Part shown: in pieces, positions 13,882-42,909 of the stretch | Layout: each line of letters starts with the position of its first letter | Position numbering within the stretch: the first letter of the stretch is position 1 | IMG/VR virus record: IMGVR_UViG_3300048834_000646 | Location: 1-52,993 of that record | Length of the DNA stretch: 52,993 nucleotides | Origin: a virus | Taxonomy: Duplodnaviria; Caudoviricetes | Strand: one strand, 5' to 3' | Notes under the pieces: generated by a model | What the model was told of the DNA's origin: nothing | Databases searched by the model: none | What the model saw: the letters and a program-made list of their open reading frames with translations, nothing else | Position numbers and translations under genes: made by a program

Positions 13882-13927
13882 CTGGCCGGGGCTCCGTCTC
13901 GGCCGCTCCAAATCCTGAGGGAGGTGG

Positions 13928-14017: not shown

Positions 14018-14033
14018 ACCAAGATCCTTACAG

Positions 14034-14052
14034 GCCGCGAGGGCGGCAGGAG
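14034..14052 (+). repeat. GCCGC-GAGG-GCGGC hairpin plus RBS
   Basis: Exact copy of 13291-13304 followed by AGGAG. Confidence 0.85.
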
Positions 14053-14058
14053 CTAGAG

Positions 14059-14418
14059 ATGGGATACACGACTCGGGAAGGGAAGATGAGCGCCGGCGAC
14101 CTCGCGGCGGACCTGACGCGGGACTGCGGAGGGGATCTCGAGGCGGCGGCGGATCGCGCCGAGGTGATGCTCAGGCAGGCGGGGAGCGCCGCCACCTCGA
14201 TCACCGCGCTCCTGCCGGAGGCGGCGCTGATCCTCCGCCGCCGCGCCGACACGATGGGCCGCGTCTCCCTCGCCAGCTCCCACCAGGCCGCGTCGGACCT
14301 TCCGCCGGCCGAGGCCTGCTCCCTCTGCGGGGGCAACGGCCGACTCGGCAGCGATATCCCCTGCCCCGCCGAGTGCCACGCCGCCGAGCCGGCACTCGCC
14401 TCCCGGTCCCACCACTAG
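14059..14418 (+). CDS. hypothetical protein with C-terminal Cys cluster
   Basis: Start reassigned to ATG 14059 after AGGAG; CSLCGGNG...CPAEC. Confidence 0.7.
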   Translation: MGYTTREGKMSAGDLAADLTRDCGGDLEAAADRAEVMLRQAGSAATSITALLPEAALILRRRADTMGRVSLASSHQAASDLPPAEACSLCGGNGRLGSDIPCPAECHAAEPALASRSHH

Positions 14419-22914: not shown

Positions 22915-23266
22915 CGAGCAGGGCCGGCGCGATGACGAGGTGACGCGCGTGGACTCGATCGAGCAAGTACGGCAGGCGATGATCCGCGTCGGGAACCGCG
23001 AGGTGCGCCTGCATCCTCCCGGCTCCACCTTCGACGCGTGGCACAAGGGGAAGCGGTTCCGGTACCGCGTCGACGAGGACGGCAGCCTGTGGCAGGTCAC
23101 GCCGTGGCCCGAGCGGATGCTACGCACGGCGGCGGAGGTCGCGGCCGCCTCGAAGCCGAAGGAGGAGCGCATCGCCGAGCTGCGGCGCGAGATCGCCGAG
23201 CTGATGCGGGACGGATCCTCCAAGGCGCTGCTCCCCGCCCCGGTGGAGGGCACGAGCGATGAGTGA
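22889..23266 (+). CDS. hypothetical protein
   Basis: GGAG RBS. Confidence 0.65.
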   Translation: MMMQQIRYDEQGRRDDEVTRVDSIEQVRQAMIRVGNREVRLHPPGSTFDAWHKGKRFRYRVDEDGSLWQVTPWPERMLRTAAEVAAASKPKEERIAELRREIAELMRDGSSKALLPAPVEGTSDE

Positions 23267-23468
23267 GAGCGTCGGAGAAGCGTTCCCGAAGGAGCAGCAA
23301 CGGCTCCGGGAGCTACTGGCGATTTATCGGGGGCTGGAGGGCGGCGTCGGCGCGTTCGGGGCAGCGGGGATCGAGCAAACGCTGCAGCGTGCCGATCAGG
23401 CGATGGCGAGCGGTGACGTGGTGGCCATCGTCCAGGCGTTTGCGGAGATGCAGGGGTGGCAGGAATGA
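23259..23468 (+). CDS. hypothetical protein
   Basis: GGAGG RBS; typical small helical phage protein. Confidence 0.7.
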   Translation: MSESVGEAFPKEQQRLRELLAIYRGLEGGVGAFGAAGIEQTLQRADQAMASGDVVAIVQAFAEMQGWQE

Positions 23469-24073
23469 CCGCGCCGACGTCCGAGCGCCGCGTGCCGGAG
23501 GAGTTCCTCGCGCGCTATGCCGACCCGAGCGACGCGCTCTCCGATCCGGTGCGGCGTGACCTCGCGCTCGACCTGACCGAGACGCTGCGCATCATCGAGC
23601 GTCGGCGCGTGCACTGCGCCTACTGCGGCGAGGATATCATCGACGTTCGGAATCCGGCCTCGTCGCTGGCGGTGCAGGAGCACATCCTGCAATGCGCGAA
23701 GCATCCGGCCGCGAAGATCGTAGCCGAGGCCGAGGCCCAGGTGGCCACCCTCTCCACCGAGGCGGAGCGGCTGAGGGATCAAGTCGCCACGCAGGCGAAG
23801 GAGTGGTATGCCCGGGTGGCTGATCTCCGCACCGAGGTGGAGCGGCTGACCAAGGAGAAGGCGGAGGCCCTGTCCGTCGCGCTTGAGCTGGATGCCGAGG
23901 TCAAGCGAATCGCAATGGTTGGCGGCACCAAGTCTGCCATTACCGCACGGTCAAAGCTGGCGCTGTCAGGTGTCGGAATGATCCGCCCGCCGCTCGACAA
24001 AATCCGCGCCCGTCTCGCCGCGCTCTCGCTCCCCACCCCCGCCGAACCCGAGGTGAAGAATGACCAGTCCTGA
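23465..24073 (+). CDS. Modular hypothetical protein (Zn finger plus coiled coil)
   Basis: CAYCG...HILQCAKHP; ATGA overlap. Confidence 0.7.
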   Translation: MTAPTSERRVPEEFLARYADPSDALSDPVRRDLALDLTETLRIIERRRVHCAYCGEDIIDVRNPASSLAVQEHILQCAKHPAAKIVAEAEAQVATLSTEAERLRDQVATQAKEWYARVADLRTEVERLTKEKAEALSVALELDAEVKRIAMVGGTKSAITARSKLALSGVGMIRPPLDKIRARLAALSLPTPAEPEVKNDQS

Positions 24074-24830
24074 GTCCCGGCCCCGTGTGGAGGGGGAGGA
24101 TAGCGTCGAGGGTAAGGCGTGGGAGATCATACAGGCGCTCGCCAAGTCGACGGATCTCGTGAGGGAATACGTCGGCGGGCTGACCGCGCGATACAACACC
24201 GCCCTCGCCGAGAACGCTCGCCTCACCGCCGAGGCGGTAATCTGGAAGTCCTCGCTCGAGTGCTGGGGCCGGCATCATCCGTGGTGCTGGCTGGTCACGC
24301 AAGCCGGAGTCGAGGGCGCGTATTGCAACTGCGGCTACAAGGAGGCGCTGACGGGAAAGGACCGGAGCCACCAGGCCGCGCCGATGTCGCCGCACGAGGA
24401 GGAGCAGGTCCGGCGCTTCGAAGCGCGCGTCGCTGCGAACGGTCGCCTCCCCACCCACGCCCCGGAGGCGATGCCACCTGAGCCGAAGTGCCTCACCTGT
24501 GGACTCTATTGCGGCCACGAGATGGTGCCTGAGATCCGGTGTAAGTGCGTGTTCCCTGTTGTGATGCCGCGAGTTGGCAAAGCGCCCCCCGCCCCGGAGG
24601 CCGATCAGAAGCGGCTCGATCGCGAAGGCGAGCTGACCCTCCCGGAGGTGCGCGAGCTGCTGCGCGCGGCCGTCAGTCAGCACGACTCTGCTCGTGCCGC
24701 GGCTCTCCGCTGGAAGCTGAGCGCCCCCTATCTCTGCGAGGTCATGAACGGCACGCGAGATCCGGGGCCGAAGATCCTCCGGCTGCTGGGACTGGAGAAG
24801 CGGACCACCGTCCGCTACGCCCATGTGTAA
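24060..24830 (+). CDS. Modular hypothetical protein with Cys clusters and C-terminal HTH
   Basis: H..WC..CNCG, CLTC; SARAAALRWKLSAPYLCEVMNGTRDPGPKILRLLG is Cro/XRE-like. Confidence 0.65.
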   Translation: MTSPESRPRVEGEDSVEGKAWEIIQALAKSTDLVREYVGGLTARYNTALAENARLTAEAVIWKSSLECWGRHHPWCWLVTQAGVEGAYCNCGYKEALTGKDRSHQAAPMSPHEEEQVRRFEARVAANGRLPTHAPEAMPPEPKCLTCGLYCGHEMVPEIRCKCVFPVVMPRVGKAPPAPEADQKRLDREGELTLPEVRELLRAAVSQHDSARAAALRWKLSAPYLCEVMNGTRDPGPKILRLLGLEKRTTVRYAHV

Positions 24831-25924: not shown

Positions 25925-26132
25925 CAGGGCTCCACAACCCCCGGCTCCCCCTCCGGAGGCCCTAGCGGGCCTCCCACCCCTCCCTCCGCACTCTCAAGGC
26001 ATCCTCGGGCCGACGCGCCCTCCTCCGGTCCGGCCTACGGGCCGGCCGGCCGCCTCCGTGGGAAGGGTGAGCGAAGCGAGCCCTTCGGGCCGCGTTTTGC
26101 ACATTTCGGGCGCACTTTCGAGCATGGGACGC

Positions 26133-26161
26133 TTTCACCGCGCCCGCGGGGCTGATAGACT
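26133..26161 (+). promoter_or_regulatory. Putative late promoter upstream of terS
   Basis: TTTCAC-N17-TAGACT with extended TG; GGGGCTGATA shared with the capsid promoter. Confidence 0.55.
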
Positions 26162-26235
26162 CAGGCAGGGTTCTGCTAAGCGGCACTCGATCACGCGCCC
26201 AAGGCGCGGGATTGCTCTCCCTCTCCGATGACACT

Positions 26236-26961
26236 ATGACAGCACGGGCAAGCGGCACCAACGCGCGAGGGAAGCATCCCGGCGGCCGGCCATCCAAGAT
26301 CACCCGCAAGCTGATTGAGGAGATCGCATTAGCGGTCGAGCGCGGTAACTACTTCGAGACCGCCTGCGCGATGTACGGGATCTCCCGGGTGACGAAGCTC
26401 GCGTGGCTGCGGCGGGGACGATCTGCCATAGAGGCAGCAGAGAAGGCGGGGGCGGAGGACAAAGAGAAGGGAAAGATTGAACCGCAGGAGAAGCTCTACG
26501 TCGAGTTTCTTTACGCAATAGAAATCGCGCAGGCGCGCGCCGAGGCGCACGACCTCGGGATCGTGACCGGCGCGGCGGTCGGCGGCATGGATCAGGGCGA
26601 GGTGGTCGAGACGCGCAAAGAGGTGCCGGTGCTCGCCCCGGATGGGAAGGCGGTGCTCGGCCCGGACGGGATGCCCCTCCGCACGACCGAGGTGACCACG
26701 ACGCGCAAGCTCAGCAAGACGCTCCCCACCTGGCAGGCCGCCGCGTGGAAGCTCGAGCGTCGGGATCCGGCCCGCTTCGGCCGGCGCGTGGTCGATGTCA
26801 ACAACAAGCACCAGAACCCGGACGGCTCGCCGCTGGCAGGTCGCGAGAAGCGCGTCCGGCTGTACCTGCCGCACAACGGCCGCGAGGCGAGCGCGGTGGT
26901 CGATAGCGCGCCGCCGGCACCGCCGGTCGCACCGCCCACGGCGGCGGAGCCGACGCCGTGA
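26236..26961 (+). CDS. terS: Terminase small subunit
   Basis: GGRPSKIT, HTH ACAMYGISRVT, WQAAAWKLERR..FG; position before terL. Confidence 0.8.
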   Translation: MTARASGTNARGKHPGGRPSKITRKLIEEIALAVERGNYFETACAMYGISRVTKLAWLRRGRSAIEAAEKAGAEDKEKGKIEPQEKLYVEFLYAIEIAQARAEAHDLGIVTGAAVGGMDQGEVVETRKEVPVLAPDGKAVLGPDGMPLRTTEVTTTRKLSKTLPTWQAAAWKLERRDPARFGRRVVDVNNKHQNPDGSPLAGREKRVRLYLPHNGREASAVVDSAPPAPPVAPPTAAEPTP

Positions 26962-27326
26962 CCACGCCCAGGACGGAGCCGATCGCGATCCCGCGTCTCT
27001 GCGAGCCGTGCCGGCGTCATCTCCTGATCGGCTCCCTGAGGCTCGGGCCCGAGGATCCGTGGGCGGCCGCCGAGGCGCTGGCGCAGCTGCTGATGCTGCA
27101 GCGCATCGTCCGCGATCGCGCGGTGCAACGGGCCACCGAGCGCGACGCTGCCCGCCTCGAGCCGTACCTCGCCGAGCGGGGATGCCCGGGCTGCGCGTGG
27201 CCACTCCTCCTGGAGGATGCGATCGGCGTCCTGCTGCGCGGCGTCTCCCACGCGGCCGCGGTGCTGCAGTTCACCGCGCGCGACCCCTACCATCCGGTCC
27301 GCCGGCCGCGCCCCCGGCCCGCGTGA
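26958..27326 (+). CDS. hypothetical protein between terS and terL
   Basis: GTGA overlaps on both sides; CEPC and CPGC. Confidence 0.65.
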   Translation: MTTPRTEPIAIPRLCEPCRRHLLIGSLRLGPEDPWAAAEALAQLLMLQRIVRDRAVQRATERDAARLEPYLAERGCPGCAWPLLLEDAIGVLLRGVSHAAAVLQFTARDPYHPVRRPRPRPA

Positions 27327-28699
27327 CCCTCGACGCCGAGGCCGTGGCCGAGGTGACGCTCGGCCCGCAGCCCGGGCCGCAGGAAGCCTTTCTCTCCAGC
27401 TCGGCCGACGTGGCCATCTATGGCGGGCAAGCCGGCGGCGGGAAGTCCTTCGGGCTCCTGCTCGAGGCGGCGCGCCATATCGAGAACCCGCGCTATGGCG
27501 GCGTCATCTTCCGGCGCTCCAACCCCGAGATCATGAACGAGGGCGGGCTCTGGGATACGTCGATGACGATCTATCCCTCCCTCGGCGGCGTGCCGATCGA
27601 GGGCAAGTCGGAGTGGCGCTTTCCGGAGTGGGGATCCACGATCCGGTTCGCCCACCTCGAGCACGAGAAGTCGCGGCTCAGCTGGGGCGGCTCGCAGGTT
27701 CCCTTCTTCGGCTGGGACGAGCTGACCACCTTCACCGAAAAGCAGTTCTGGTACATGCTGATTCGGAACCGCTCGGACTCCGGCGTCCGGGGCTACATGC
27801 GCGCGACGACGAATCCCGACGCGGACTCGTGGGTCGCGCGCCTGGTGAAGTGGTGGGTCGATCAGGAGACGGGGTACGCGATCCCCGAGCGCAGCGGGAT
27901 CCTGCGCTGGATGCACCGGCAGGGGGATGAGATCCTGTGGGCCGACTCGCCCGAGGAGCTGATCGCCGAGCATCCCGACGCGCTGCCGAAATCCTTCACC
28001 TTCATCCCCAGCTCGATCTACGACAATCCGATCCTGCTGAAGGGCAACCCGGACTATCTCGCCTCGCTCAAGGCGCTGCACCTGATCGAGCGCGAGCGCA
28101 TGCTGCGCGGCAACTGGAAGATCCGCGCGGAGGCGGGCAACGTCTTCAACCGCGACAACTTCGAAGTGATCGCCGCGCTGCCCGCGGGCTGGCGCTACAT
28201 GGTCCGCCAGTGGGACAAGGCGAGCAGCTCGGACGGGGATTGGACCGCCGGCGTCCTGCTCGCTTACTATCCATCGGGCATGTACGTGGTGGTCGACGTC
28301 AAGCGGGTGCAGTTCCGTCCCGGGGCGCGCGAGACCCTGATCAAGAACACCGCCTCGCAGGATGGCCGCGCGACGGTCGTCGGGCTCTTCCAGGATCCAG
28401 CCGCCGCCGGCGTCACGGATCTGCACGCCACCGTCACGATGCTCGCCGGCTACTCGATCGAGCACGCCGTCGTCAGCGGCGACAAGGTCACGATGGCGTC
28501 CCCCTGCGCGGCGCAAGCCGAGGTGGGCAACATCAAGGTGCTGCGGGCGGAATGGAACGAGGACTTCCTCGCGGAGCTGCACGCCTTTCCGACGCGCGGC
28601 ATTCCGGATGACCAGGTCGACGGATTGACCGGGGCCTTCAACACGATCACCCGACTCAAGAGCAAGCTCCCCACGAAGGTTTCCTCCCGAGGCGCATGA
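27323..28699 (+). CDS. terL: Terminase large subunit
   Basis: PQPGPQ, YGGQAGGGKS, GWDE, ATTNP, WDKA, DDQVD. Confidence 0.95.
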   Translation: MTLDAEAVAEVTLGPQPGPQEAFLSSSADVAIYGGQAGGGKSFGLLLEAARHIENPRYGGVIFRRSNPEIMNEGGLWDTSMTIYPSLGGVPIEGKSEWRFPEWGSTIRFAHLEHEKSRLSWGGSQVPFFGWDELTTFTEKQFWYMLIRNRSDSGVRGYMRATTNPDADSWVARLVKWWVDQETGYAIPERSGILRWMHRQGDEILWADSPEELIAEHPDALPKSFTFIPSSIYDNPILLKGNPDYLASLKALHLIERERMLRGNWKIRAEAGNVFNRDNFEVIAALPAGWRYMVRQWDKASSSDGDWTAGVLLAYYPSGMYVVVDVKRVQFRPGARETLIKNTASQDGRATVVGLFQDPAAAGVTDLHATVTMLAGYSIEHAVVSGDKVTMASPCAAQAEVGNIKVLRAEWNEDFLAELHAFPTRGIPDDQVDGLTGAFNTITRLKSKLPTKVSSRGA

Positions 28700-30258
28700 T
28701 GAGCGACACTCCCGATATCAAACTGCCCGAGTACGCGGCCGCCGCGCCGATCTGGAAGCAGTCCCGCGACGCGCTCGAGGGGACGCGCACGATCCGCGCG
28801 GCAGGGGAGGATTACCTCGCGCGCTTCGCCGGCGAGGGCGACGACGTGTTCGCGCTGCGCCTGAGCGGCGCGGTGTTCTTCAACGGCTTTGCGCGGACCA
28901 TCCGCGCCATGACCGGCCTCGCCACGCAGCGCCCGCCGAAGAAGGTCGACGTGCCGGCGATGGTGGTGAAGCACATGGAGCGCATCGATCGCCGCGGGCG
29001 ATCGCTCAACGCCTTTCTCTCGTCGTCGCTGGACGAGCTGCTCGCGATGGGCTGCGGCGGCATCTTCGTGGACTCGCCGGCCGTCCCGATCGGGCAACGG
29101 CCCGTCTCGCTGGCCGAGGAGCAGCGCCGCGGCCTGCGGCCGTACTGGATGTGGATCGCGCCGGAGGACGTCACCTGGATCGACTGGCGGCTCGTCGGCT
29201 CGGCGATGGTCGTCTCGCACTTCGTCCGGCGCGCGGTCGAGAGCAAGCCGGACGGCCGCTTCGGCGTCGTGGAGGCGGAGGTCTATTGGGAGTATGTCGC
29301 GCCGCTCACCGGCCCGGTGCAATGGTTCAAGTGGGAGTGGGTCGAGAAGGAGGCGAAGAAGAGCGCGAAGAAGGGTCCGAAGAAAGAGAGCGTGCCGGAG
29401 CTCGAGCTGAAGATCACCAGCGAGGGGACGCTCTCCCCGCGCCTGAAGGGGATCCCGTTCGCCAGCTGCCCCGTCGGCAAGGGCAAGCACGATTTCTATC
29501 GCGTCTCCCCGCTGCTCGACCTGCTCGATATCAATCTCCGCCACTACCAGACCGACGCCGCGCTGCACTGGAACCTGCTGATGCAGGCGTATGGCGTCTC
29601 CGTGCGCCTGGGCGCGGTGCCGGACCTCAACGGCGATCTGCCGCCGGTGCCGATGGGCCCCTCGGTCATGGTGGACATTCAGAACCCGCAGGGCGACTTC
29701 AAGATCGTCGGCCCGCCGAGCGAGGCCTTCGAGCCGCAGATGCGATCGATGCAGATGGACGTCACCAACATGGCCACGATCGGGCTCGCGTTCATGCAGC
29801 CGACGACGCGCGCGGCCGAGACGGCCGAAGCGCGCCGCCTCGACATGCAGGCGGGGCAGGCCACGCTGCGCGACGTGCTCGAGCTCTTCAAGGACTGCGC
29901 GGAGGCGGCGACCGCGTTTCACGCGCAGATCATCGGCAAGGCCGACAAGGACGGCGAGGGCGGCAGTCTCGAGTTCGCCTTCGACTTCGATGACTCGCTG
30001 CTCTCGGCCGATCTGCTCAACGCCCTCAGCAACATGCAGGTGAAGGGACAGCTCACGCTCCCGACGCTGCTCAAGGCGGTCGCACTCGGCAAGCTGCCCG
30101 AGGACTTCGATCCGGAGGAGGAAGCGATCGCGGTCCAGCTGCAGGGCATCCCCATGCCGGGAGACGAGCCGATCATCCCGAAGAAGCCCGATCCCGCGCC
30201 GAAGGATCCGGCCGCGGTGCCGCCGGCCGAGCCTGACGCGCCGGGGACCGGCGCGTGA
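28696..30258 (+). CDS. Portal protein (DUF4055-like)
   Basis: Follows terL; 520 aa; YL, RPYW, PLLDL..NLRHYQ, ETAEA motifs. Confidence 0.88.
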   Translation: MMSDTPDIKLPEYAAAAPIWKQSRDALEGTRTIRAAGEDYLARFAGEGDDVFALRLSGAVFFNGFARTIRAMTGLATQRPPKKVDVPAMVVKHMERIDRRGRSLNAFLSSSLDELLAMGCGGIFVDSPAVPIGQRPVSLAEEQRRGLRPYWMWIAPEDVTWIDWRLVGSAMVVSHFVRRAVESKPDGRFGVVEAEVYWEYVAPLTGPVQWFKWEWVEKEAKKSAKKGPKKESVPELELKITSEGTLSPRLKGIPFASCPVGKGKHDFYRVSPLLDLLDINLRHYQTDAALHWNLLMQAYGVSVRLGAVPDLNGDLPPVPMGPSVMVDIQNPQGDFKIVGPPSEAFEPQMRSMQMDVTNMATIGLAFMQPTTRAAETAEARRLDMQAGQATLRDVLELFKDCAEAATAFHAQIIGKADKDGEGGSLEFAFDFDDSLLSADLLNALSNMQVKGQLTLPTLLKAVALGKLPEDFDPEEEAIAVQLQGIPMPGDEPIIPKKPDPAPKDPAAVPPAEPDAPGTGA

Positions 30259-31067
30259 GGTACGTCCACCAGACCGACACGGATCCGGATCCGCCGCACG
30301 ACTTCTACCCCTCGCTGTCGGGGAATCGGCCGGGGCAGATGCGCGCCGAGCTGTACGCGCTCTGTCGGCTCCTGCAGCAGCTGGACTGCGCCTCCTGGCT
30401 CGAGGTCGGCTGCCGGGAGGGCGACGCCTTCCACGCGGTCGCCTCGATGCTGCCGCGCGTCTCGCGCGAGGGGGATCCGCGCGCGACGCGCATGGTGGCG
30501 ATCGAGCTGCCCGAGCAGCTGTGGGGCCGGACGGGAACGCTCCCCATGCTCGAGCGCGCCGCCGACGCCGCGCGCGCGCTGGGGCACGAGGTCGCGGTGC
30601 TGGCCCTGAACAGCCAGGACGCGGAGACGGCGCGTCGCGCGGCCGCGCTCGGCCCCTTCGACGCGGTCCTGATCGATGCGGATCACAGCTATCGCGGCGT
30701 GCGTCGGGATTGGGCGCTGTACGGGCCGCTCGCGCGCAAGATCTGCTGCTTCCACGACATTCACGGCGAGGGGCAGACCACGACGGCCGTCGGGCCCAGC
30801 GACGCGCCGCGCGTCGCGATCGAGGTGCCGAGGCTCTGGCGTGAGATTGTCGACGCCGGCGTCTACGCGACGCTCGAGATCCGCGCCCCCGGCTCCAAGA
30901 TGGGGATTGGTGTCGTCTTCATGCAGGACAACGGCGCGCACGTGCTCACGCCGGCAGAGGCCGCGCGCCGCTTCCCGCATCTCACGCCGGCCGAGCTCGC
31001 CGGCACGCTCGCCGCGCGCGTCGATCGCCTGCTCAGCAAGCGCGCCGCGCAGGGCGCAGGGGCATGA
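30255..31067 (+). CDS. Class I SAM-dependent methyltransferase (Methyltransf_24-like)
   Basis: LEVGCREG, FDAVLIDADHSY..V..D, FHDI, V..LW, GIGVV. Confidence 0.88.
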   Translation: MRYVHQTDTDPDPPHDFYPSLSGNRPGQMRAELYALCRLLQQLDCASWLEVGCREGDAFHAVASMLPRVSREGDPRATRMVAIELPEQLWGRTGTLPMLERAADAARALGHEVAVLALNSQDAETARRAAALGPFDAVLIDADHSYRGVRRDWALYGPLARKICCFHDIHGEGQTTTAVGPSDAPRVAIEVPRLWREIVDAGVYATLEIRAPGSKMGIGVVFMQDNGAHVLTPAEAARRFPHLTPAELAGTLAARVDRLLSKRAAQGAGA

Positions 31068-31351
31068 GCGTCTATCGCCGGCCGAGCCAGGCCAAGGGAT
31101 TCACGCTCGTCGTCATGGATAGCGGCGGCCGCGCCTTCTACCGGCTCGAGGACGCCGACGCGATCGACAACGCGATCGACATGGAGCTGGAGCGCGTCGT
31201 CGTCACGAGCCTCTTCGGCAGTCGCGCGCGCCTGAGCCTTGCCTGCGTCGCGCTCGTGCACCGCGTGCTGCCGGAGGAGCTGGAGGCGGAGATCCTCGAA
31301 GACGAGGCCGAGGAAGCGCACCAGAAGGCTGAGGAGATGCGCGGCAAATGA
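31064..31351 (+). CDS. hypothetical protein
   Basis: ATGA overlaps. Confidence 0.65.
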   Translation: MSVYRRPSQAKGFTLVVMDSGGRAFYRLEDADAIDNAIDMELERVVVTSLFGSRARLSLACVALVHRVLPEELEAEILEDEAEEAHQKAEEMRGK

Positions 31352-32292
31352 GCGCCGCCAGCCTCGCCGCGGCAGCCCTTCGGAATGAGGCGCGAGTGCT
31401 GCGCCTGATCCCGTCGCTCCGTACGGCGTGGCTCGCGACCGTCGAGGGGATCCTGCAGAATTTGCGGATGCGCGCCCTCTTCCAGCCGGGGCAGTCGTCC
31501 CGCGTCCTCGAGACGCTGTTCGCGAGCCCGGAGATCGAGGCGCTCTCGCTGGCCGAGCGGGCGACATGGCGCGACGCGTACGCGCAGGCGGGGACCTGGG
31601 CGCAGCGTGATCTGCCGTCCCGCTATGTGCGCGGCCCCTTCGACGTCACCTCGGTCTCGTCGCTGCGCGTGCTGCGGCGCTGGGAGACGCGGATCTTCGA
31701 TCTGCAGCTCGACGTGGCGAAGCAGGGCCTGCATTACGGCAGCGAGCTGGCATGGGTCCGCGGCATGAAGGCCGAGGCGCGCTATCGGCTCGTCGGCAAC
31801 AGCGTCGGGATCGGTCCCACCTCGTGGGATTGGGTGACCAGCTACCGCGACGACCTGCTCGCCGGCGAGGTAGGATCCGCCCGAGGCCGCCGCCTCCACG
31901 ATCAGCGGTACAAGCTGCGCGGGATCCCGAAGGAGGGCCTGTCGGAGGAGGCGGTCGACAACCTGGTGGCGAAGTATGCCAAGCGCGTGCAGCGCTACCG
32001 GGAGAACACCGCGATTCGCACCGCCGGCCTGAACGCCTATCGCGCAGGGCAGCAGGAATCCGTCGAGCAGGCGATCGCGCTGAACGGCGTCAATGCCTCG
32101 CTCTTCCGCCGGCGCTGGATCACGCGCCTCGATGGCAAGGAGCGGCCGACGCATCACGACATGAACGGCGAGCTGGTGGGCATCAACGAGCCGTGGATCG
32201 TGGACGGAGTAGGGCCACAGATGACGCCGGGAGAGGACGAGTTCAACTGCCGGTGTACCGTGGGGTATGTTATCGGAGTTCCCAAGAAGTAG
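31348..32292 (+). CDS. Head morphogenesis protein (Mu gpF / SPP1 gp7-like)
   Basis: RWITRLDGKERPTHHDMNG...FNCRC. Confidence 0.88.
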   Translation: MSAASLAAAALRNEARVLRLIPSLRTAWLATVEGILQNLRMRALFQPGQSSRVLETLFASPEIEALSLAERATWRDAYAQAGTWAQRDLPSRYVRGPFDVTSVSSLRVLRRWETRIFDLQLDVAKQGLHYGSELAWVRGMKAEARYRLVGNSVGIGPTSWDWVTSYRDDLLAGEVGSARGRRLHDQRYKLRGIPKEGLSEEAVDNLVAKYAKRVQRYRENTAIRTAGLNAYRAGQQESVEQAIALNGVNASLFRRRWITRLDGKERPTHHDMNGELVGINEPWIVDGVGPQMTPGEDEFNCRCTVGYVIGVPKK

Positions 32293-32316
32293 GCTCGCCA
32301 CCCATCGAGGAAGATC

Positions 32317-33105
32317 ATGAAAGCGAAGATCGGCACGCTGGAAGACGTCGCAGAGGGCATGCGCGGAGAGTACGAACCGAATCCCGACACGGCCGAGGGC
32401 GGCTTTGTGCTGAAGCTCGAGGGCGCGGAAACGCATCCCTTCAACCTGGGGCTCGTCCAGAAGAACAAGACGCTGATCAAGGCCGAGAGCGACGCGAAGA
32501 AGGCGCTCGAGGCGTACGGCGGTCGGGATCCGGCGCGGATCAAGGAGCTCGAGGACGCGGCCGCGGCCGCGGAGGATGCACGGCTCCGCGCCGAGGGCAA
32601 TTGGGACGCGAAGGAAGCGGCCGTCCGCAAGCACTACGAGGAGACGGTCATCCCGCCGCTGAAGGCGGATCTCGCGCTCGCCGATACCTTCCTCGAGCGC
32701 ACGCTGGTCAGCGATGCGATTCGGTCGGCGGCCGAGGAGGCGGGCTTCCATGCGAACCTGATCGTGCCCTTCGCCTCGCCGCTGGTGAAGAAGGTCAAGG
32801 TCGACGGAGGATTCGCCGCGCGCGTGCTGGCCGCGGATGGCAAGACCGAGCGCATCGACGGCGCGACCGGTCAGCCGTTCACCGTGCTGCAGCTCCTGAA
32901 GGAGATGGCGGCCAAGGAGGATTATCAGCCGCTCCTCAAGCCGACCGGCGCGGACGGTAGCGGCAGCGGGGATGGCAAGGGCGACAAGGGCGTCAAGGTG
33001 CCCTTCGATCCGAAGAAGGCCACGCAGGCGCAGAAGTCGGCCTTCATCCGGGAGCATGGGATCGCCAAGTGGACCGCGCTGATGGAAGGCGCGAGCGAGG
33101 CCTGA
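32317..33105 (+). CDS. Capsid scaffolding protein
   Basis: Coiled coil, GSG linker, KSAFIREHG C-terminus; directly before the capsid gene. Confidence 0.8.
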   Translation: MKAKIGTLEDVAEGMRGEYEPNPDTAEGGFVLKLEGAETHPFNLGLVQKNKTLIKAESDAKKALEAYGGRDPARIKELEDAAAAAEDARLRAEGNWDAKEAAVRKHYEETVIPPLKADLALADTFLERTLVSDAIRSAAEEAGFHANLIVPFASPLVKKVKVDGGFAARVLAADGKTERIDGATGQPFTVLQLLKEMAAKEDYQPLLKPTGADGSGSGDGKGDKGVKVPFDPKKATQAQKSAFIREHGIAKWTALMEGASEA

Positions 33106-33128
33106 TCGAGCGGCCAGAGCGGAGCGGT

Positions 33129-33163
33129 GACGGCGGGCAGGGGCGATCCCCCTGCCCGCGGTC
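33129..33163 (+). terminator. Strong hairpin after the scaffold gene (no clear U tract)
   Basis: GCGGGCAGGGG / CCCCTGCCCGC 11-bp stem. Confidence 0.5.
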
Positions 33164-33179
33164 GTATCCGGTGGCAGGG

Positions 33180-33209
33180 TTGCGCCTCGCTGCCGGGGGC
33201 TGATACTGT
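33180..33209 (+). promoter_or_regulatory. Putative late promoter for the capsid gene
   Basis: TTGCGC...TG-A-TACTGT; GGGGCTGATA shared with the terS promoter. Confidence 0.55.
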
Positions 33210-33213
33210 TTCC

Positions 33214-33403
33214 CCAGGCAGCAGGGAGACGCACCGGCCAAGCCGGACGCCTTGAGCTGCATCATCGAGCAGGGATCGACTGGCCAAGCCATCGCCCGCG
33301 CTCACCTTCCGCTCCGTGCTAAGCGCGGGCAAGGATGCTCCCACTAGATCCCGGCCCGCGCGTTTGCGTTCGTGGCCGTGGACAACCCCCCGACGAGGTT
33401 GCC
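33214..33403 (+). ncRNA. Structured 5' leader of the capsid gene (candidate cis-regulatory RNA)
   Basis: Three YAA triloop hairpins, mutually exclusive stems, RBS-occluding stem; no convincing ORF. Confidence 0.45.
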
Positions 33404-34384
33404 ATGTCCATCGGAAAGAAGACGGATTTCAAGATCTACCATGAGCAGTTCTTCGGCGGCCAGCTCGAAGCCATCGTGCAGATGATCGATGGATTCAACG
33501 CGGCCAGCCGGAATGCGCTCGTGCTGCAGTCGAAGCTGCTCAAGGGCGACTACGCTTACGAGTCCTTCATGAACGACATCACCCTGATCACGCGGCGCGA
33601 TCCGACCAGCGTGGCGACCGCCGACGACACGGCGATGACGCAGGGCGAGATGATCAGCGTGAAGCTGAACCGCAAGATCGGCCCGGTCGCGAACACGATC
33701 GACTCCTTCCGCAAGATCGCCGCGGATCCGGAGCTCTTCTCCTTCATGTTCGGCCAGATGTTCGGCCCGAAGAAGGTGCAGGAGATGCTCAACACCGCGA
33801 TCTCGGCGCTGGTGGGCGCGATCGGCACCACCACGGCCAACATGTACACCGTGCCGACGAACGGCGTCCTCAGCTTCTCCGGCCTGGTGAACGGCCTCGC
33901 CAAGTTCGGGGATCAGTCTTCGCGGATCACCGCGTGGGTGATGCACTCGAAGTCCTACTTCGATCTCGTCGGGCAGGCGGTCACGGACAAGGTCTATGGC
34001 GTCGCCGACGTCGCGATCTTCGAAGGGACCACCGGCACGCTCGGCCGGCCGGTCATCGTCACCGATGCCCCGGCGCTCAAGATCTCGAGCGGCGGCTCGG
34101 TGCCGACCTACACCTACGCGACGCTCGGCCTGGTCGAGGGCGCAGCGGTCGTGGAGGAAAGCGAGGAGCAGGAGATCGAGAGCCAGCTGATCACCGGCTT
34201 GGAAAACCTCGTCATGCGGATTCAGGGCGAGTACGCCTACAACCTCGGCCTCAAGGGCTACAAGTACGACGTCACGAGCGGCGGGCTCAACCCGGATGCG
34301 ACCGCGGTCGCGCTCGGCACCAATTGGGACAAGGCCGTGACGTACGACAAGAACCTGGCCGGCGTCCGGATCATCTCCACCTGA
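33404..34384 (+). CDS. Major capsid protein
   Basis: GAGG RBS before ATG 33404; FNAAS, WVMHSK, LGRPVIVTD, GTNW; position after scaffold. Confidence 0.92.
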   Translation: MSIGKKTDFKIYHEQFFGGQLEAIVQMIDGFNAASRNALVLQSKLLKGDYAYESFMNDITLITRRDPTSVATADDTAMTQGEMISVKLNRKIGPVANTIDSFRKIAADPELFSFMFGQMFGPKKVQEMLNTAISALVGAIGTTTANMYTVPTNGVLSFSGLVNGLAKFGDQSSRITAWVMHSKSYFDLVGQAVTDKVYGVADVAIFEGTTGTLGRPVIVTDAPALKISSGGSVPTYTYATLGLVEGAAVVEESEEQEIESQLITGLENLVMRIQGEYAYNLGLKGYKYDVTSGGLNPDATAVALGTNWDKAVTYDKNLAGVRIIST

Positions 34385-34401: not shown

Positions 34402-35415
34402 ATGATGAAGCGTCCGCATCTCGTCACGATTCCCGGAGGGCGTGGGCCGAAAGGCCTGCGTCCTCCGATGCGGCTGCTCGTCAGCTACACCGCCCCGGGG
34501 ACGTCCCCCTACATCGATGACTTCTGCGCCGGCGCGCGCGCGTCGGGGTGGCGCGTCGTCCATCGCGAGGGCCGGCTGTGGACTGCCGGCTGCGACCTGA
34601 TCGATTGCGACCTGGTCGTCGTCAACGGAACGCGGAGCACGCCGGGAGTGGTCGCGGCGGCCTATCGCGCCGCCGGGATCCCGGTCTGCGTCTACGACCT
34701 GCCGCCCTTCCGCTTTGTGCCGGGAGCGTGGGCCGGTCTCTTCCGGGATCTCGCGGGCAACCCCTTCCTCCCCGCGGCGGGCCTGCCCGACCGTCTGAGC
34801 GCGTTTCCCCTGCCGCCGCGGCTCTCCCCCTCCCTCAAGGGGCCGTTGGTGCTCGTGGGGCAAGTGGCGACCGACAGCTCCCACCGGATCACGCCCGCGG
34901 AGTATCAGGCGTGGCTCCGCGACGCGGCCGCGGCGCTCGACGCGTCCGGGCAGCCGTGGGTCTACCGGCCCCATCCGAAGCAGTCGCAGCCCCTGCTCGA
35001 GCTGGCGGACTATCGCGCCTGCCCGATGAACGAGACGATCCCGCAGATGCTGCTTTGGGCCCGCGGCGTGATCTGCTGGGGCTCGACCGTGCAGTACGAG
35101 GCGCTCTATCATCGCGTCCCGGTGTCGATCGGCGTGCGCGGGGACGCGCTCCTTCCCGCCCCGCGCTCCGACGCCGAGGCCGATGCAATTCTGCAGGCCG
35201 TCGGCTGGAATCAGTTCAGCCCGGACGAGCTGCGCTCGGGACTGGCGATCGGGATCCTGACGGACGGCCCGCCGATCGCGCCGGCCGCCGAGCCCGCGGC
35301 CGAGGAGATTCCGATCGCGGATCCGGATCCGGCCGAGGATACAGCGGGGCCAGCAGCAGAAGCGCCGCGCACCAGCGCGCCGCGCCGGCAGCGTAGTCAG
35401 CGGAGGTCTGCGTGA
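34402..35415 (+). CDS. Capsule-synthesis (KpsS/KpsC-like) glycosyltransferase-fold protein
   Basis: LVGQVATDSS, YRPHPK, GSTVQYEAL..VPV, NQFSPDELRSG; low-complexity C-terminal tail. Confidence 0.75.
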   Translation: MMKRPHLVTIPGGRGPKGLRPPMRLLVSYTAPGTSPYIDDFCAGARASGWRVVHREGRLWTAGCDLIDCDLVVVNGTRSTPGVVAAAYRAAGIPVCVYDLPPFRFVPGAWAGLFRDLAGNPFLPAAGLPDRLSAFPLPPRLSPSLKGPLVLVGQVATDSSHRITPAEYQAWLRDAAAALDASGQPWVYRPHPKQSQPLLELADYRACPMNETIPQMLLWARGVICWGSTVQYEALYHRVPVSIGVRGDALLPAPRSDAEADAILQAVGWNQFSPDELRSGLAIGILTDGPPIAPAAEPAAEEIPIADPDPAEDTAGPAAEAPRTSAPRRQRSQRRSA

Positions 35416-38502: not shown

Positions 38503-38840
38503 TCTGGGAGATGGAGTGGGGGCCGTTCCTTGAAAAACTGGCCGGCCCCATCTCCCGCGGTGAGTGTGTTTTCTGGAACGAGCAGCCGGTCGTCCTCGCC
38601 CAAGATCGCTGGCTGCTCGGGGCCTTTCGAGATCTCAACACTTGCCGCACCGTCGGCGTTCGCGATGGCCTGATTCCATGGACGGCCATCGATGCCTATG
38701 CGAGGCGCTATCGCATCGTCGGCGAAGACTTCGAGACCCTGGCCGCGGTGATCCGGCACATGGACCTCTGCTGGATGGAATTCCATAACGAGCGCTCCGC
38801 GAAGGAAGAGGAGCCGGAGCCCGAAGACGATGCCAGCTAA
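38496..38840 (+). CDS. Tail assembly chaperone, frameshift extension (T-like)
   Basis: AFRDLNTCR, IPWTAIDAYA, IRHMD motifs; -1 frame. Confidence 0.8.
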   Translation, partial: RIVWEMEWGPFLEKLAGPISRGECVFWNEQPVVLAQDRWLLGAFRDLNTCRTVGVRDGLIPWTAIDAYARRYRIVGEDFETLAAVIRHMDLCWMEFHNERSAKEEEPEPEDDAS

Positions 38841-41800
38841 CGTCGCAACACTCAGACTCACGATCGACGGCTCCGGAGCTATCTCCGGAGTCTCGTCGTT
38901 TTCGGATGCCGCGCGCGGCGCGACGGCCGCCGGCGAGGAGGTGAAGACCAGCGCGATGGAGGTACAGGCGGCCGTCGACGCGATGGGCCGCTCGCAGACG
39001 GAAGTCGCCGCCGCGATCGACAAGGAGTCGGCCGCGCTGGCGCAGGTCAGTACCGCGCTCGCCGGGACCGCGCAGGCGCAGGAGCAGTTCAACCTGGCCA
39101 CCGAGAGCGGCCGCGCGGCCCGGGACGCGTATTTCGAGCAGCTCGATCGCGAGGTGGCCGCGGAGAACGCCGCACGGCAGGCCGTCGAAGCGCACATGCA
39201 GGTGGTCAACGCGCAGACGCGGGCCACGCAGGAGCGCGGGCGGGCGGAGGCCGAGGCGTGGGTGCAGAGTCTCAAGTCGGCCGAGGCGACGCAGGTCGCG
39301 ACCGAGGCGGAGCAGAAGCGCCTTGCCTCCTACCAGAAGCTGGTCGCGAGTACTGAGAAGTCGATCGTCGGCCTGAAGGAGGAGCTCGCGCTCGCGCAGG
39401 CGAACGCGGCCGGCAACCTCGAGGAGGCCGACGCGATCATCGCCTCGGCCAACGCGCGGCGCGCCGAGATCGAAGTGCAGCGGCTGTCGATCGGGCGCAA
39501 CGCGGATGAGATCGCGCAGATCAAGCTGATCGTGGCCGAGAAGCAGCGGCTCGTCACCTCGCTGCAGCAGACGCAGAATGCCTCGAGCGGGACCGCCCTC
39601 ACGAATGGGAAGCTCCGCTCCTCCCTCACCTCGCTGCTCACGACGGTGGCCGGTGTCCCGGGCCCGGTGGGGCAAGTCGCGAGCAGCCTCTCCTCGATGG
39701 CGATCGGTGGCGTGGTCACGGTGGGCCTCCTCGCGGGGCTCACGGCGATCAGCTACCTCTACGAGAAGCTGACGGCCAACTCCCGCAAGCTGCGCGAGGA
39801 AACCGAGCGGCTCACCAAGTCCCTCAGCGAGCAGGCACAGGAGCAGGCGGGGCTCAAGGCGCTCAGCGATCGCGCGCTCCTGCTCAAGCAGGTCGAGTCG
39901 GCGCAGCTAAGCCTGTCGCGTGCGCAGGCCCGCGAGTCGCGGCCGGTCGAGTTCAACCCGCGCACCGACCTGCCGGTCAGCCGGGGGTACGGCCCCAGCC
40001 TCGCCGACGCGGAGAAGAAGGCGGCCGAGGCCGCCGAGGTCCTCGCGCAGTTCGATCGGAACGCGTCGGCGCAGCTGATCGGCTCCACGCAGGCCCTCGC
40101 GGTCGCCCGCGCGAAGGCGACCGGGGATCTCACGAAGATCGAGGCGGCGCAGCGCGCGGCCGCCATTGCCTCGCTCGAGGCGCAGATCAATGCCACGCAG
40201 GGCCTGACCGTCGCGCAGAAGGAGTATCTGCGCGTCACCGGCCTCGCCACGATCGAGCTCGACCTGCAGGCGGTGGCCACCGAGAAGGCACGCGCGAGCA
40301 GCGACGCGCGGCGGGCCCAGCTGGCGCAGGTCCGCACGGCCGAGTTGGACGCGGCGATCGCCCTGGCGGATGCGGCGAAGGACTACGACGCCAAGCAGCG
40401 GGCGCAGGCGGCCAAGACCGCGTTCGAAGTGAGTCAGCAGCTGATCGGCATGGACCACCTGAACGCGGCCGAGAAGGAGCGCTATCGGCTCGCGCGCCTC
40501 TCCGGGGACGCGATCGCCACGCAGGCCGAGAACACGCGGCGCACGGAGGAGGTCGAGAAGAAGCGGCTGACCACGCTCAAGGCCTCCTTCGATTCCGAGC
40601 GGTCGCTGCAGGAGCTGGTCGACAAGGGCGCAACGCTCCGGAGCCAGCTGAATCAGAGCGACCTGGCGCAGGCGCAGACGGCGCTCGAGATCCGGCATCG
40701 CGCGGAGCAGGCGGCGCTGAAGGAAGCGGCCGCGCTGGACCCGATCATCGCGGCCAACATCGAGATCCGGCAGACTCAGCTCGACGTCAATCAGGGCCTC
40801 GAGCGGCAGCTCCTGCAGCGCGACGTGCTCGCCCGCACCGCGCAGGAGGCGAAGGATCTCGCCGACCTGCAGTATCAGGGCGATCAACTCGCCCTCGCGC
40901 TCGCGGGGAAGTCGTACGAGGCCGAGGTGCGCGCGATCGACGCGACGTACAAGCACGCCGTCGCCGCGCTCGACTTCGCCAGGGCGCAGGGGACGATCAG
41001 CGAGGGGGCCTATCAGGCGCAGCTGGCGCAGCTCAAGCACAACCAGTCGCTCGAGCAGACGCAGGTCGAGTACAAGGCGCTCGGGGGCATTGCCGATCAG
41101 GTGCTCAGCGGTCTCTCGAGCGCGACCGACGATCTCTTCCGGGATCTGCTCTCGGGCGGTACCGACGCCTTCGCCAAGCTCGCCGAGAGCATCCTCGGCA
41201 CGGTGCAGCAGCTCGCGATCGACCTCGCCAAGATCGGCCTGCTGCGGGCGCTGGTCGGTGGCGACACGGCCGGCCAGTCGCAGGAGGAGCTGGTCAAGCA
41301 GCTCAGCGGGAAGCTGACCAAGGTGCTGGCCGATGTGCAGAAGAAGATCGGCAAGGAGGGCGTCGGCGCGATCGCCGGCGCGGCGGTCGGCTTCGGCGTC
41401 GGCTCCTCGACCGGCAGCCCGCTCGCCGGCGGCCTCTCGGGCGCGGCAACAGGCCTCGCGGTCGGCGGCCCCGTCGGCGCGATCGTCGGTGGCATCGGGG
41501 GCATCGTCGGCGGCCTGCTGGGGCACGCGAATTCGATCAAGCAGATCCAGAAGACCTACGACACCGCGACGAAGAATTTCGAGCGCTCGCTCGATGAGTT
41601 CGTCAAGGGGCTGACCGGCGTCTATGACGGCTATATCGGCCAGCAGAACCGCCTCAAGGATGCGGTCGCGGCGCAGGGGGATCAGGCGCTGCGCGTCTTC
41701 GATCTCTCGCTGCTCTCGCGCGATCTCGAGAAGTTCGGCGTCGACTACGCGGATCTCTCCAAGATCCTGAAGGAGGAGGGGGTCGAAGGGATCAAGCGCG

Positions 41801-42909
41801 TGCGAGATCTCTTCGCGGGATCGGTCAAGTCCACCAAGGACATCGACATCCTGATCGCCGAGCTGGAGAAGCTCGGCGGCGGGGCGACCGAGGCGGCCGA
41901 CAAGCTCGCGGCGGCGGAGTCCGCGCGGCAGACGCGCATCTCGCAGGATCTCGAGTCGCAGCTGAGCCAGGCCAAGCTGCGCGGCACCGAGGATCCGGCC
42001 GCCCAGCGCGCCCTCGAGGATCGCCTGCAACAGCTCGCGCAGGAGCGGCGCTACATCGAGGCGACCGCGGAGCTCTACACCGAGCAGCAGCTCGCCACGC
42101 TCCGGCTCCTCGACGCCGAGGAGACGCTGGCCACGCAGCGCGAGCGCGCGGCCGAGGATCAGCAGGCGCAGGCGGCCGCCGAGCGGACCGCCCGGGACTT
42201 CTCGCTGGATCTCCTGCAGCGCGAGGCGGCGCTGTCGCAGGACGCCGACCAGGCGAAAGCGGCCGGGATCGCGATCCTTGCCGCGCGGCAGCAGGACGAG
42301 GCGGCCGCCGCGCAGAAGCTGCTCGATGCCGGCACGCTCACGCAGGAGCAGTTCGAGCGCCTTGCCGCGGTCATGAGCGGGGAGATGATCGCCGCGCTGA
42401 ACAGCACGAGCGGGGCGATCGACCAGATCGCCACGGCCGCGCAGATTCTGAGCGACAACGCCTCGGCCCTGAGTCAGCAGTTCGATGTCTTCGGGACGGA
42501 TCTGGACGAGCAGGTACGCCAGCTGGGCGAGCTCTACGGATTCCAGGGGAAGTCGATCGAGGATCTGCAGGCGCTGTACACCAAGGTGACGCCGGGGGAG
42601 GCAATCTCCGAGGAAGCGAAGACGCTCAACGACGAGATTGCGCGGTTCATTACCTTGCAGCGGCAGGCCGATGCGGCCAACACCGTGAACGCCGGCACGG
42701 CCGACACGGCGCGTACCGCGCGGGCCACCTCCCCGACCGGAAACGTCATCAATGGCAATGTGGCCGTGAGCATCACGATCAACACCACGAGCAACGAGCT
42801 GAACGATCCGGAGCGCTCGGCCGAGGCGATCGCGACGCGCGTGAACCGGATCCTTGGTGGCCGCCTCTCGCTTGAGCGCCGCGCGCGCGGCTTGTCGCTG
42901 ACGGTATGA
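38830..42909 (+). CDS. Tape measure protein
   Basis: 1359 aa, Ala/Gln/Glu helical, Gly-rich hydrophobic patches; follows the chaperones. Confidence 0.92.
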   Translation: MPANVATLRLTIDGSGAISGVSSFSDAARGATAAGEEVKTSAMEVQAAVDAMGRSQTEVAAAIDKESAALAQVSTALAGTAQAQEQFNLATESGRAARDAYFEQLDREVAAENAARQAVEAHMQVVNAQTRATQERGRAEAEAWVQSLKSAEATQVATEAEQKRLASYQKLVASTEKSIVGLKEELALAQANAAGNLEEADAIIASANARRAEIEVQRLSIGRNADEIAQIKLIVAEKQRLVTSLQQTQNASSGTALTNGKLRSSLTSLLTTVAGVPGPVGQVASSLSSMAIGGVVTVGLLAGLTAISYLYEKLTANSRKLREETERLTKSLSEQAQEQAGLKALSDRALLLKQVESAQLSLSRAQARESRPVEFNPRTDLPVSRGYGPSLADAEKKAAEAAEVLAQFDRNASAQLIGSTQALAVARAKATGDLTKIEAAQRAAAIASLEAQINATQGLTVAQKEYLRVTGLATIELDLQAVATEKARASSDARRAQLAQVRTAELDAAIALADAAKDYDAKQRAQAAKTAFEVSQQLIGMDHLNAAEKERYRLARLSGDAIATQAENTRRTEEVEKKRLTTLKASFDSERSLQELVDKGATLRSQLNQSDLAQAQTALEIRHRAEQAALKEAAALDPIIAANIEIRQTQLDVNQGLERQLLQRDVLARTAQEAKDLADLQYQGDQLALALAGKSYEAEVRAIDATYKHAVAALDFARAQGTISEGAYQAQLAQLKHNQSLEQTQVEYKALGGIADQVLSGLSSATDDLFRDLLSGGTDAFAKLAESILGTVQQLAIDLAKIGLLRALVGGDTAGQSQEELVKQLSGKLTKVLADVQKKIGKEGVGAIAGAAVGFGVGSSTGSPLAGGLSGAATGLAVGGPVGAIVGGIGGIVGGLLGHANSIKQIQKTYDTATKNFERSLDEFVKGLTGVYDGYIGQQNRLKDAVAAQGDQALRVFDLSLLSRDLEKFGVDYADLSKILKEEGVEGIKRVRDLFAGSVKSTKDIDILIAELEKLGGGATEAADKLAAAESARQTRISQDLESQLSQAKLRGTEDPAAQRALEDRLQQLAQERRYIEATAELYTEQQLATLRLLDAEETLATQRERAAEDQQAQAAAERTARDFSLDLLQREAALSQDADQAKAAGIAILAARQQDEAAAAQKLLDAGTLTQEQFERLAAVMSGEMIAALNSTSGAIDQIATAAQILSDNASALSQQFDVFGTDLDEQVRQLGELYGFQGKSIEDLQALYTKVTPGEAISEEAKTLNDEIARFITLQRQADAANTVNAGTADTARTARATSPTGNVINGNVAVSITINTTSNELNDPERSAEAIATRVNRILGGRLSLERRARGLSLTV

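Follow-up and report, generated by a model that had tools for sequence, protein, structure and literature searches.

The window analysed here is the complete IMG/VR record IMGVR_UViG_3300048834_000646 (52,993 bases; estimated completeness 77%), a siphovirus record with a guanine-plus-cytosine (GC) content of about 70% along its whole length and with nearly all of its genes on the plus strand. In its late region, the stretches preceding the small terminase gene (terS) and the major capsid gene carry two and three small hairpins, respectively (H1 and H2 in leader 1, H3 to H5 in leader 2; Table 1), which differ in their stems and share a constant C-YAA-G tip. The two stretches, 25925-26235 and 33106-33403, are the largest non-coding ones of the late region according to the codon-position GC profile, and in GC content (0.70) they do not differ from the genome. 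The hairpin set is real, strand-specific, restricted to the leaders, and not a product of chance. We tentatively propose that these hairpins are RNA sites for one trans-acting factor co-regulating the translation or stability of both late transcripts, a reading that we hold to be possible rather than probable.

To separate the hairpins from background, a CYAAG word was scored as paired when it closed a stem of at least four pairs, with G-U pairs allowed. Only six of the 78 CYAAG words in the window (66 on the plus strand and 12 on the minus strand) are paired: all five in the leaders, 1 of the 61 elsewhere on the plus strand (a weak hairpin with two G-U pairs at 33062-33072, within the scaffold gene), and 0 of the 12 on the minus strand. 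The hypergeometric chance of finding all five leader words paired is 6/C(66,5), or about 7e-7. In a control of 43 loci around large terminase (terL) genes (512,450 bases), 40 of 959 CYAAG words were paired, and no two paired words lay less than 300 nucleotides (nt) apart. Shuffled sequence gave the same answer: across 3,000 shuffles of the leaders, the overall number of triloop hairpins was similar to that observed (mean of 4.4 vs 6), while the biggest group of a single loop class was three (in 9 shuffles), and the observed five was never reached. This test takes any loop class and so allows for the post hoc choice of the loop. A covariance model of the five hairpins (R1) returned them at 17.3-20.3 bits, scores that are high by construction because the five are its training set; the next match in the window reached 13.6 bits, and 662 kilobases of control loci held only two matches of at least 17.3 bits, both isolated. 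A looser statistic (at least three identical triloops within 250 nt) gave 28 groups in 1.45 megabases, mostly low-complexity sequence or tandem repeats, and was not used as evidence because it is not rare at genome scale.

The positions that a preliminary description of this DNA had given for the shared 10-mer, CAGGCAG, and all five hairpins were right in every case, as was its observation that GCAGGG precedes three of the hairpins (H1, H3, and H4, at 2, 7, and 6 nt upstream). Its principal observation, variable stems around a fixed loop, is likewise borne out by a strand-specific, non-random set with covarying stems. When the five are aligned, 80% of the cells pair vs 56% in shuffles, and both sides change at six of the seven pairs, a count with some circularity, as the four inner pairs were the criterion by which the hairpins had been selected. 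The pair adjoining the closing pair is G-C in four hairpins and C-G in one (H2), and the fourth pair is C-G, U-A, or G-C. H1 and H5 have the 9-mer TGCTAAGCG in common and H3 and H4 have GGCCAAGCC; therefore, the five hairpins amount to about three independent stem types. The first pair beyond each shared 9-mer shows a double compensating change (C-G to G-C; C-G to U-A), and these changes beside the 9-mers are more telling than the covariation count from the alignment. Predicted folds, both alone and in context, form H2, H3, H4, and H5 as drawn, and H1 and the H4 core, with only four pairs each, are marginal by themselves.

Table 1. Features of the two late gaps and of the genes around them (window coordinates; empty cells, not given).
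Feature	Position	Strand	Description
GC-rich hairpins and T run	25955-26098	+	Hairpins 25955-25974, 26025-26045, and 26072-26087, with the gap's sole T4 run (26095-26098); terminator-like end of upstream block
Promoter-like site 1	26133-26161	+	TTTCAC, 17 nt, TGATAGACT at 26153 (extended -10-like); contains the shared 10-mer (26148-26157)
CAGGCAG and GCAGGG words	26162-26172	+	CAGGCAG at 26162; probable leader 1 5' end; possible GGCAG-CUGCU pairing in competition with H1
H1	26173-26183	+	CUGC-UAA-GCGG, 4 pairs (one G-U); weakest hairpin
H2	Core 26194-26208, extended 26188-26214	+	CGCGCC-CAA-GGCGCG, 6 core pairs; -15.7 kcal/mol in context
Shared box GGAUUGCUCUCCC	26209-26221	+	Directly 3' of H2, the last hairpin of leader 1; counterpart at 33333
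terS (small terminase)	26236-26961	+	phrog_4102, E 1e-25; record's gene call starts at ATG 26236
terL (large terminase)	26795-28699	+	
Portal	28696-30258	+	
Methyltransf_24-type methyltransferase	30255-31067		Inside the head-assembly operon, after portal
ORF of 95 amino acids, then Mu F-like head protein			Between methyltransferase and scaffold genes
Scaffold protein	32317-33105	+	
11-pair GC-rich hairpin	33133-33159	+	Just 3' of the scaffold stop; strongest of the upstream hairpins; terminator-like, without a U run
Promoter-like site 2	33180-33209	+	TTGCGC, 18 nt, TGATACTGT at 33201; contains the shared 10-mer (33196-33205)
CAGGCAG, then GCAGGGA	33215-33227	+	First CANGGA word
H3	33234-33246	+	CCGGC-CAA-GCCGG, 5 pairs
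GCAGGGA	33269-33275	+	Second CANGGA word; GCAG paired with CUGC 33257-33260 in local fold
H4	Core 33281-33291, extended 33277-33294	+	UGGC-CAA-GCCA; extension CGA/UCG with one bulged C
H5	33316-33326, core 33313-33329, extended 33305-33334	+	C-UAA-G, core of 7 pairs; outer CCUU/AAGG pairs include the third CANGGA word
Major capsid protein, SPP1 gp13-like	33404-34384	+	PF20036, E 1.5e-95; GAGG 6 nt upstream
Adaptor, tail terminator, tube, and chaperone genes			Downstream of the capsid gene
Two very long ORFs	38830-42909, 42906-47009		No family match

These counts also bear on whether the signal could reside in DNA, with GCYAAGC acting as the site of a DNA-binding protein or as a hairpin extruded from single-stranded DNA. 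Although four of the five cores read GCYAAGC and the elements lie near promoter-like sites, H2 reads CCCAAGG, with the pair flipped and the letters not kept. The window as a whole shows no excess of GCYAAGC (16 copies vs 12.5 expected), 11 of the 15 plus-strand copies lie outside the leaders, and the one outside copy that was checked (2481) closes no hairpin. Furthermore, all five hairpins are on the coding strand, where the mirror C-TTR-G words form hairpins in 0 of 12 cases, and neither a virion RNA polymerase nor any other enzyme that reads hairpins was recognised among the open reading frames (ORFs), which were scanned against Pfam and PHROGs here and in what follows. We therefore regard a DNA-level signal as very unlikely.

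Each of the two gaps may be the control region of a late transcription unit: unit 1 would run terS-terL-portal-methyltransferase-MuF-scaffold, and unit 2 would comprise the capsid gene and the genes downstream of it. In this arrangement, each gap would contain, in order, hairpins ending the upstream unit, a housekeeping-type extended -10 (TGnTAnnnT) promoter, and an untranslated leader. The 10-mer GGGGCTGATA has exactly two copies on both strands of the window, one per gap, and CAGGCAG lies 4 nt (gap 1) and 9 nt (gap 2) 3' of it. A word of at least 10 letters was common to both gaps in 25% of 1,000 shuffles, so the 10-mer alone, which had been described as a shared late-promoter motif, is weak and non-significant evidence. 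The part of that description which stands concerns the extended -10-like sites. TGNTANNNT (TGnTAnnnT) occurs only six times on both strands, three of them on the plus strand, and two of those three are in the late gaps, upstream of the hairpins; in each gap, the promoter-like site is also the only TAnnnT. The late-promoter reading therefore leans mainly on these sites, which are better supported by their rarity, and not on the 10-mer. The -35-like words TTTCAC and TTGCGC agree with TTGACA at no more than three of six positions.

At the putative ends of the upstream units, neither the hairpins of 25955-26098 nor that of 33133-33159 is called as a terminator, and U runs are missing from these hairpins. 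Between 25500 and 34000, terminator-like calls fall only at 28850 (plus strand) and, as two overlapping calls, at about 26540 (minus strand), with none in the leaders. Directly 3' of the last gene before the terS gap lies a C-rich, G-poor tract (25929-25990), which could act as a Rho loading site closing the upstream block. The early divergent region (2472-2483, 2552-2563, and 3115-3123) has the -10-like words CAGTATAGC and CAGTATACC, which differ in type from the late TGATA sites, together with the perfect palindrome GCTATATATAGC. These sequences resemble an operator-promoter set lying between a minus-strand HTH_36 gene and a plus-strand ribbon-helix-helix-like gene.

Taken whole, the two gaps do not align (local score of 25, equalled in 71 of 300 shuffles). 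Both nevertheless contain the following words in the same order (GGGGCTGATA, CAGGCAG, TGCTAAGCG, GCGCGGG, and GGAT(T)GCTC), and this colinearity suggests that both gaps descend from one promoter-leader module with large insertions. Such a history would suit an explanation that needs no protein, in which the only role of the hairpins is to stabilise the 5' ends of two abundant late messages, or to insulate them, and the matched loops are a legacy of local promoter-leader duplication. The colinear words and the 9-mers common to H1/H5 and H3/H4 are what that explanation would predict, but the failure of the gaps to align beyond short words is not, and neither is the pattern of change: the loop letters are kept in all five hairpins, while the changes beside the shared words are compensatory. 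Stability alone needs no single loop sequence, and H1 and the H4 core would be marginal stabilisers. On the other side, the capsid leader, at 298 nt vs 11-113 nt in 15 relatives, represents an insertion, and no binding protein was found among the scanned ORFs. We consider protein-independent structure doubtful, although it deserves to be kept in mind.

Under the reading that we tentatively prefer, the C-YAA-G hairpins would dock one RNA-binding factor, phage-encoded or host, and this factor would set the translation or lifetime of both late messages jointly; the promoters, the transcripts, the factor, and its effect are what we infer. H2 and H5 would most likely be the control points because they are gene-proximal, are the strongest of their leaders, and abut a box present in both leaders that contains a start-type codon (TTG 26212 and ATG 33335). 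The box, GGAT(T)GCTC, has three copies on the plus strand, two of which directly follow H2 and H5. TTG 26212 is in frame with terS, and AAGG lies 7 nt upstream of it, inside the loop and 3' arm of H2, so that extended H2 spans both this Shine-Dalgarno-like word and the TTG. A translational operator, as had been suggested in the preliminary description, thus has some support on this side; the difficulty is the start annotated for terS in the record, ATG 26236, which has no Shine-Dalgarno word, unlike most genes of the window. In the second leader, ATG 33335 shares the reading frame of the capsid gene and lies at the base of H5, within the shared box GGAUGCUCCC. The 23 codons from 33335 to 33403 have a third-position GC of 0.57 vs 0.93 in the capsid gene and are therefore probably non-coding, although they may provide a minor extended capsid form or have a coupling role. 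We took 33404 as the capsid start because relatives align from the first residue of that start.

Several observations weigh against a common factor, in addition to the partial circularity of the covariation count and the reduced number of independent stems given above: (i) the annotated terS start lies 27 nt past H2, and H5 lies 70-75 nt from the capsid ATG, a distance of about 75 nt that makes direct occlusion of that start impossible; (ii) H1 is out-competed by GGCAG-GGUU-CUGCU in the predicted fold and is not predicted alone; (iii) the stability of the whole-leader folds is not above that of shuffles (z of 0.64 and -1.58); (iv) a scan for sigma-70 consensus promoters calls neither late-gap site; (v) no sigma factor, antiterminator, or RNA-binding domain was recognised in the scanned ORFs; and (vi) no relatives carrying the leaders were found in protein and DNA searches.

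Two further observations concern the folding of the hairpins. AAGCGGCAC occurs twice on the plus strand, at 26178-26186 (the 3' arm of H1 and its flank) and at 26250-26258 (14 nt into terS), and in the whole-leader fold the 5' arm of H1 is paired with the second copy. Separately, the early ribbon-helix-helix-like gene (2595-3014) has an 8-pair hairpin at its 3' end (2984-3006), the 7-nt loop of which, CUUGGCA, could base-pair with the GCCAAG of H3 and H4. CTTRG occurs only 12 times on the plus strand. The complementarity could reflect an antisense or kissing partner or chance.

The preliminary description had offered, as one form of a protein-bound RNA element, a nut-like antitermination signal. 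Part of that proposal stands, since the set fits an RNA element read by one factor and the leaders lie downstream of the late region's only TGnTAnnnT sites; its nut form lacks two defining features. In lambdoid phages, nut consists of boxA, a spacer, and a boxB hairpin bound by N, the boxA word being CGCUCUUA in lambda and UGCUCUUUA in rrn (PMC2724277). The leaders resemble nut in that their hairpins are small, keep one loop while the stems vary freely, and closely follow a putative promoter, with one site per transcription-unit start, and in the short linear words near the hairpins (GCAGGG before, UGCUC after). They differ in that no boxA consensus in the leaders, no N-like protein among the families scanned, and no downstream terminators in the terminator scan were found. 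Moreover, the window loops have 3 nt (5 if the closing pair opens) and begin with a pyrimidine, each leader holds two to three copies, and the leaders precede late structural genes, not early ones. More generally, processive antitermination, whether nut-like (a phage factor with Nus proteins) or put-like (RNA alone acting on RNA polymerase), could be loaded after each late promoter, and we judge this unlikely. The hairpins start about 5-20 nt past the likely start sites and follow promoter-like sites, as a nut would, and a transcript from the terS promoter would have to pass the strong hairpin at 33133-33159 between the late units; but that hairpin has no U run, and no terminator-like site lies downstream within the leaders. 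The order of hairpin and then boxA in rrn leaders (PMC2724277) resembles that of H2 and H5 followed by UGCUC, just as GCAGGG before three hairpins might recall a linear element. However, YGCTCTT occurs 13 times on the plus strand and in neither leader, the closest words being TGCTCTCCC at 26213 and TGCTCCCAC at 33336; set against UGCUCUUUA and CGCUCUUA, the nearest words are UGCUCUCCC and UGCUCCCAC. Three sites in one leader are also unlike nut, and neither an Arg-rich N-like gene nor any antiterminator family was found. The word AGCGGCAC at 26179, which matches the Escherichia coli rrn word upstream of boxA, was rejected as a chance identity (five copies on the plus strand and three on the minus strand).

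The purine-rich words around the hairpins raise another alternative, namely that CANGGA and GCAGGG boxes are the functional words, as Csr/Rsm-type sites or Shine-Dalgarno-like standby sites, and that the C-YAA-G hairpins merely present or hide them. CsrA targets carry several GGA words, placed in the loops of hairpins and across the Shine-Dalgarno sequence. Leader 2 contains three copies of CANGGA (33222, 33270, and 33330), where 0.22 are expected and three were reached in 0 of 2,000 shuffles; leader 1, by contrast, has none and only a single GGA. Five of the 46 plus-strand GCAGGG words are in the gaps, and each leader has a GCAG that pairs with a CUGC close by, in leader 1 in competition with H1. 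Yet the third CANGGA is predicted to be paired and not looped, the capsid Shine-Dalgarno word GAGG contains no GGA, and the fixed YAA loop would be left unexplained. For these reasons, this alternative seems quite improbable.

Other known systems offer partial parallels to a common RNA-binding factor. The target of ANTAR proteins consists of two hairpins with hexaloops whose first residue is A and whose fourth is G, and the second hairpin competes with an intrinsic terminator (PMC3369931). The likeness would lie in two small hairpins (stems down to three pairs) with a variable linker and conserved terminal-loop residues, and in a system in which one dimeric protein reads the hairpins and several leaders are tagged by one motif (PMC3369931). 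In the window, the ANTAR loop rule is not followed, as all five loops are 3-nt YAA closed by C-G; the ANTAR domain (PF03861) is absent from the scanned phage ORFs, and the leaders have no terminator-like site. Coat-protein operators are a second parallel, and that of Q-beta probably has a three-base loop. In single-stranded RNA phages, the coat-protein translational operator is a short hairpin (PMC3561173). Its likeness to the window hairpins would include loop-residue recognition and a position that includes or abuts a start codon, with a virion protein throttling another gene. It differs in its RNA genome, single operator, and dedicated coat-protein fold, whereas the window has five hairpins in two leaders of a double-stranded DNA siphovirus, with an uncertain start-codon overlap. 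A third parallel is the scaffolding protein of P22, which reportedly regulates its own production post-transcriptionally; here, too, a head-assembly protein would feed back on late mRNA, and unit 1 of the window ends with the scaffold gene while unit 2 begins with the partner capsid gene. In contrast, nothing in the window links the scaffold protein to the hairpins, and we know of no RNA target of that kind for P22 scaffolding.

The preliminary description saw no obvious Q- or N-type regulator or sigma factor, and the Pfam and PHROGs scans bear this out with a single weak exception. A PHROG "sigma factor" match on 23456-24073 (E 6e-4) was rejected, as it falls on a coiled coil that also matches many coiled-coil Pfam families. 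An Arg-rich ORF of 98 amino acids (23263-23559) was ruled out as an N-like protein, its frame being non-coding by codon-position GC; it is overlapped by a 67-codon gene with coding-like composition (23259-23462). Immediately before the terS gap lie unassigned genes that are candidate factors by position only. They include a 256-residue protein in which a Cys/His-rich module is strongly conserved and the C-terminal segment is helix-turn-helix-like by eye, an 88-residue four-cysteine protein belonging to a widespread unnamed phage family, and ORFs of 69, 114, and 104 amino acids. Homologue searches with the 88- and 256-residue proteins returned only unnamed phage families. The five nearest homologues known solely at the protein level are 54-73% identical, and one of them is encoded on a 33.5-kilobase contig. 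In the same neighbourhood, 23456-24073 and 24060-24830 look like halves of a module that is a single protein in four database homologues. They have in common a TAPT-ERRV word near the N terminus, a coiled coil, and a Cys/His-rich block that hardly varies (WKSSLECWGRHHPWCW...CNCGY), and an extra 90 C-terminal residues are found in the window copy only.

Database searches place the window far from its nearest relatives. Among viral, genome, and metagenome contigs, the best identity of the capsid protein was 58%, with no locus carrying the motif; the best cellular match (47%) was a prophage-like locus in a Longimicrobiales metagenome-assembled genome. For terL the best identity was also 58%, the terS search gave no useful match, and at 90% identity neither terS nor the capsid protein clusters with any other entry of a collection of 15 billion proteins. 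Three wastewater sequencing runs contain small shares of the window as short contigs identical to it. The gap between the scaffold and capsid genes measures 11-113 nt in 15 relatives (11, 74, and 55 nt in phiHSIC, Tunturi_4, and Eidolon) vs 298 nt in the window; six loci were left out of this count, namely L006, L017, and L019 (contigs already counted), L016 (no upstream DNA), L022 (partial), and L013 (an unrelated terS match). As these gaps are short and have no leader, the capsid leader is lineage-specific. Matched-loop hairpins of any sequence were not found before the capsid gene in the relatives, including the cultured phiHSIC, Tunturi_4, Eidolon, and VPv64. One relative (L007; capsid 51% identical) has two perfect 6-pair A-TCT-T hairpins 57 nt apart (2387-2401 and 2444-2458), which were rejected because they lie inside the 3' end of the scaffold gene and not in a leader. 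A terL relative with 41% GC (L047) has, on its reverse strand at about 13856-14100, five tandem 56-nt units, each with a 7-pair C-TCG-G hairpin.

Searches with the nucleotide sequence were similarly unproductive. When the late region and the two gaps were compared with phage records by megablast and blastn, the outcome was either no match or chance matches to coding DNA (E of at least 0.08). The Rfam search suggested in the preliminary description returned no family match in the window at the gathering score, and the two gaps gave only microRNA and internal ribosome entry site noise (E of at least 0.1). Scanning viral contigs for the promoter word with CAGGCAG yielded 23 loci, all unrelated and of lower GC, which were rejected. 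A scan for two GGCYAAGCC cores yielded 85 matches, likewise rejected as coding repeats because 80 of them are spaced by multiples of three. In the window itself, an ORF of 337 amino acids directly 3' of the capsid gene (34402-35415) has no family match; a decoration or protease-like gene might be expected at that position.

Late control in tailed phages has mostly been described in terms of promoters and antiterminators, and, to our knowledge, little is known beyond a few model phages about how the widely differing amounts of packaging enzyme, scaffold, and capsid are set post-transcriptionally. A loop-specific tag common to two late leaders would be a concrete and mutable handle on such post-transcriptional dosing. 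More speculatively, and with considerable doubt on our part, hairpin arrays with one loop per phage, differing between phages, might mark virion-gene leaders as the RNA half of an undescribed but widespread phage system. If so, a fast-evolving RNA-binding regulator would set the output of packaging, head, and tail genes jointly, and this phage would be a high-GC, C-YAA-G example in which both late units are tagged.

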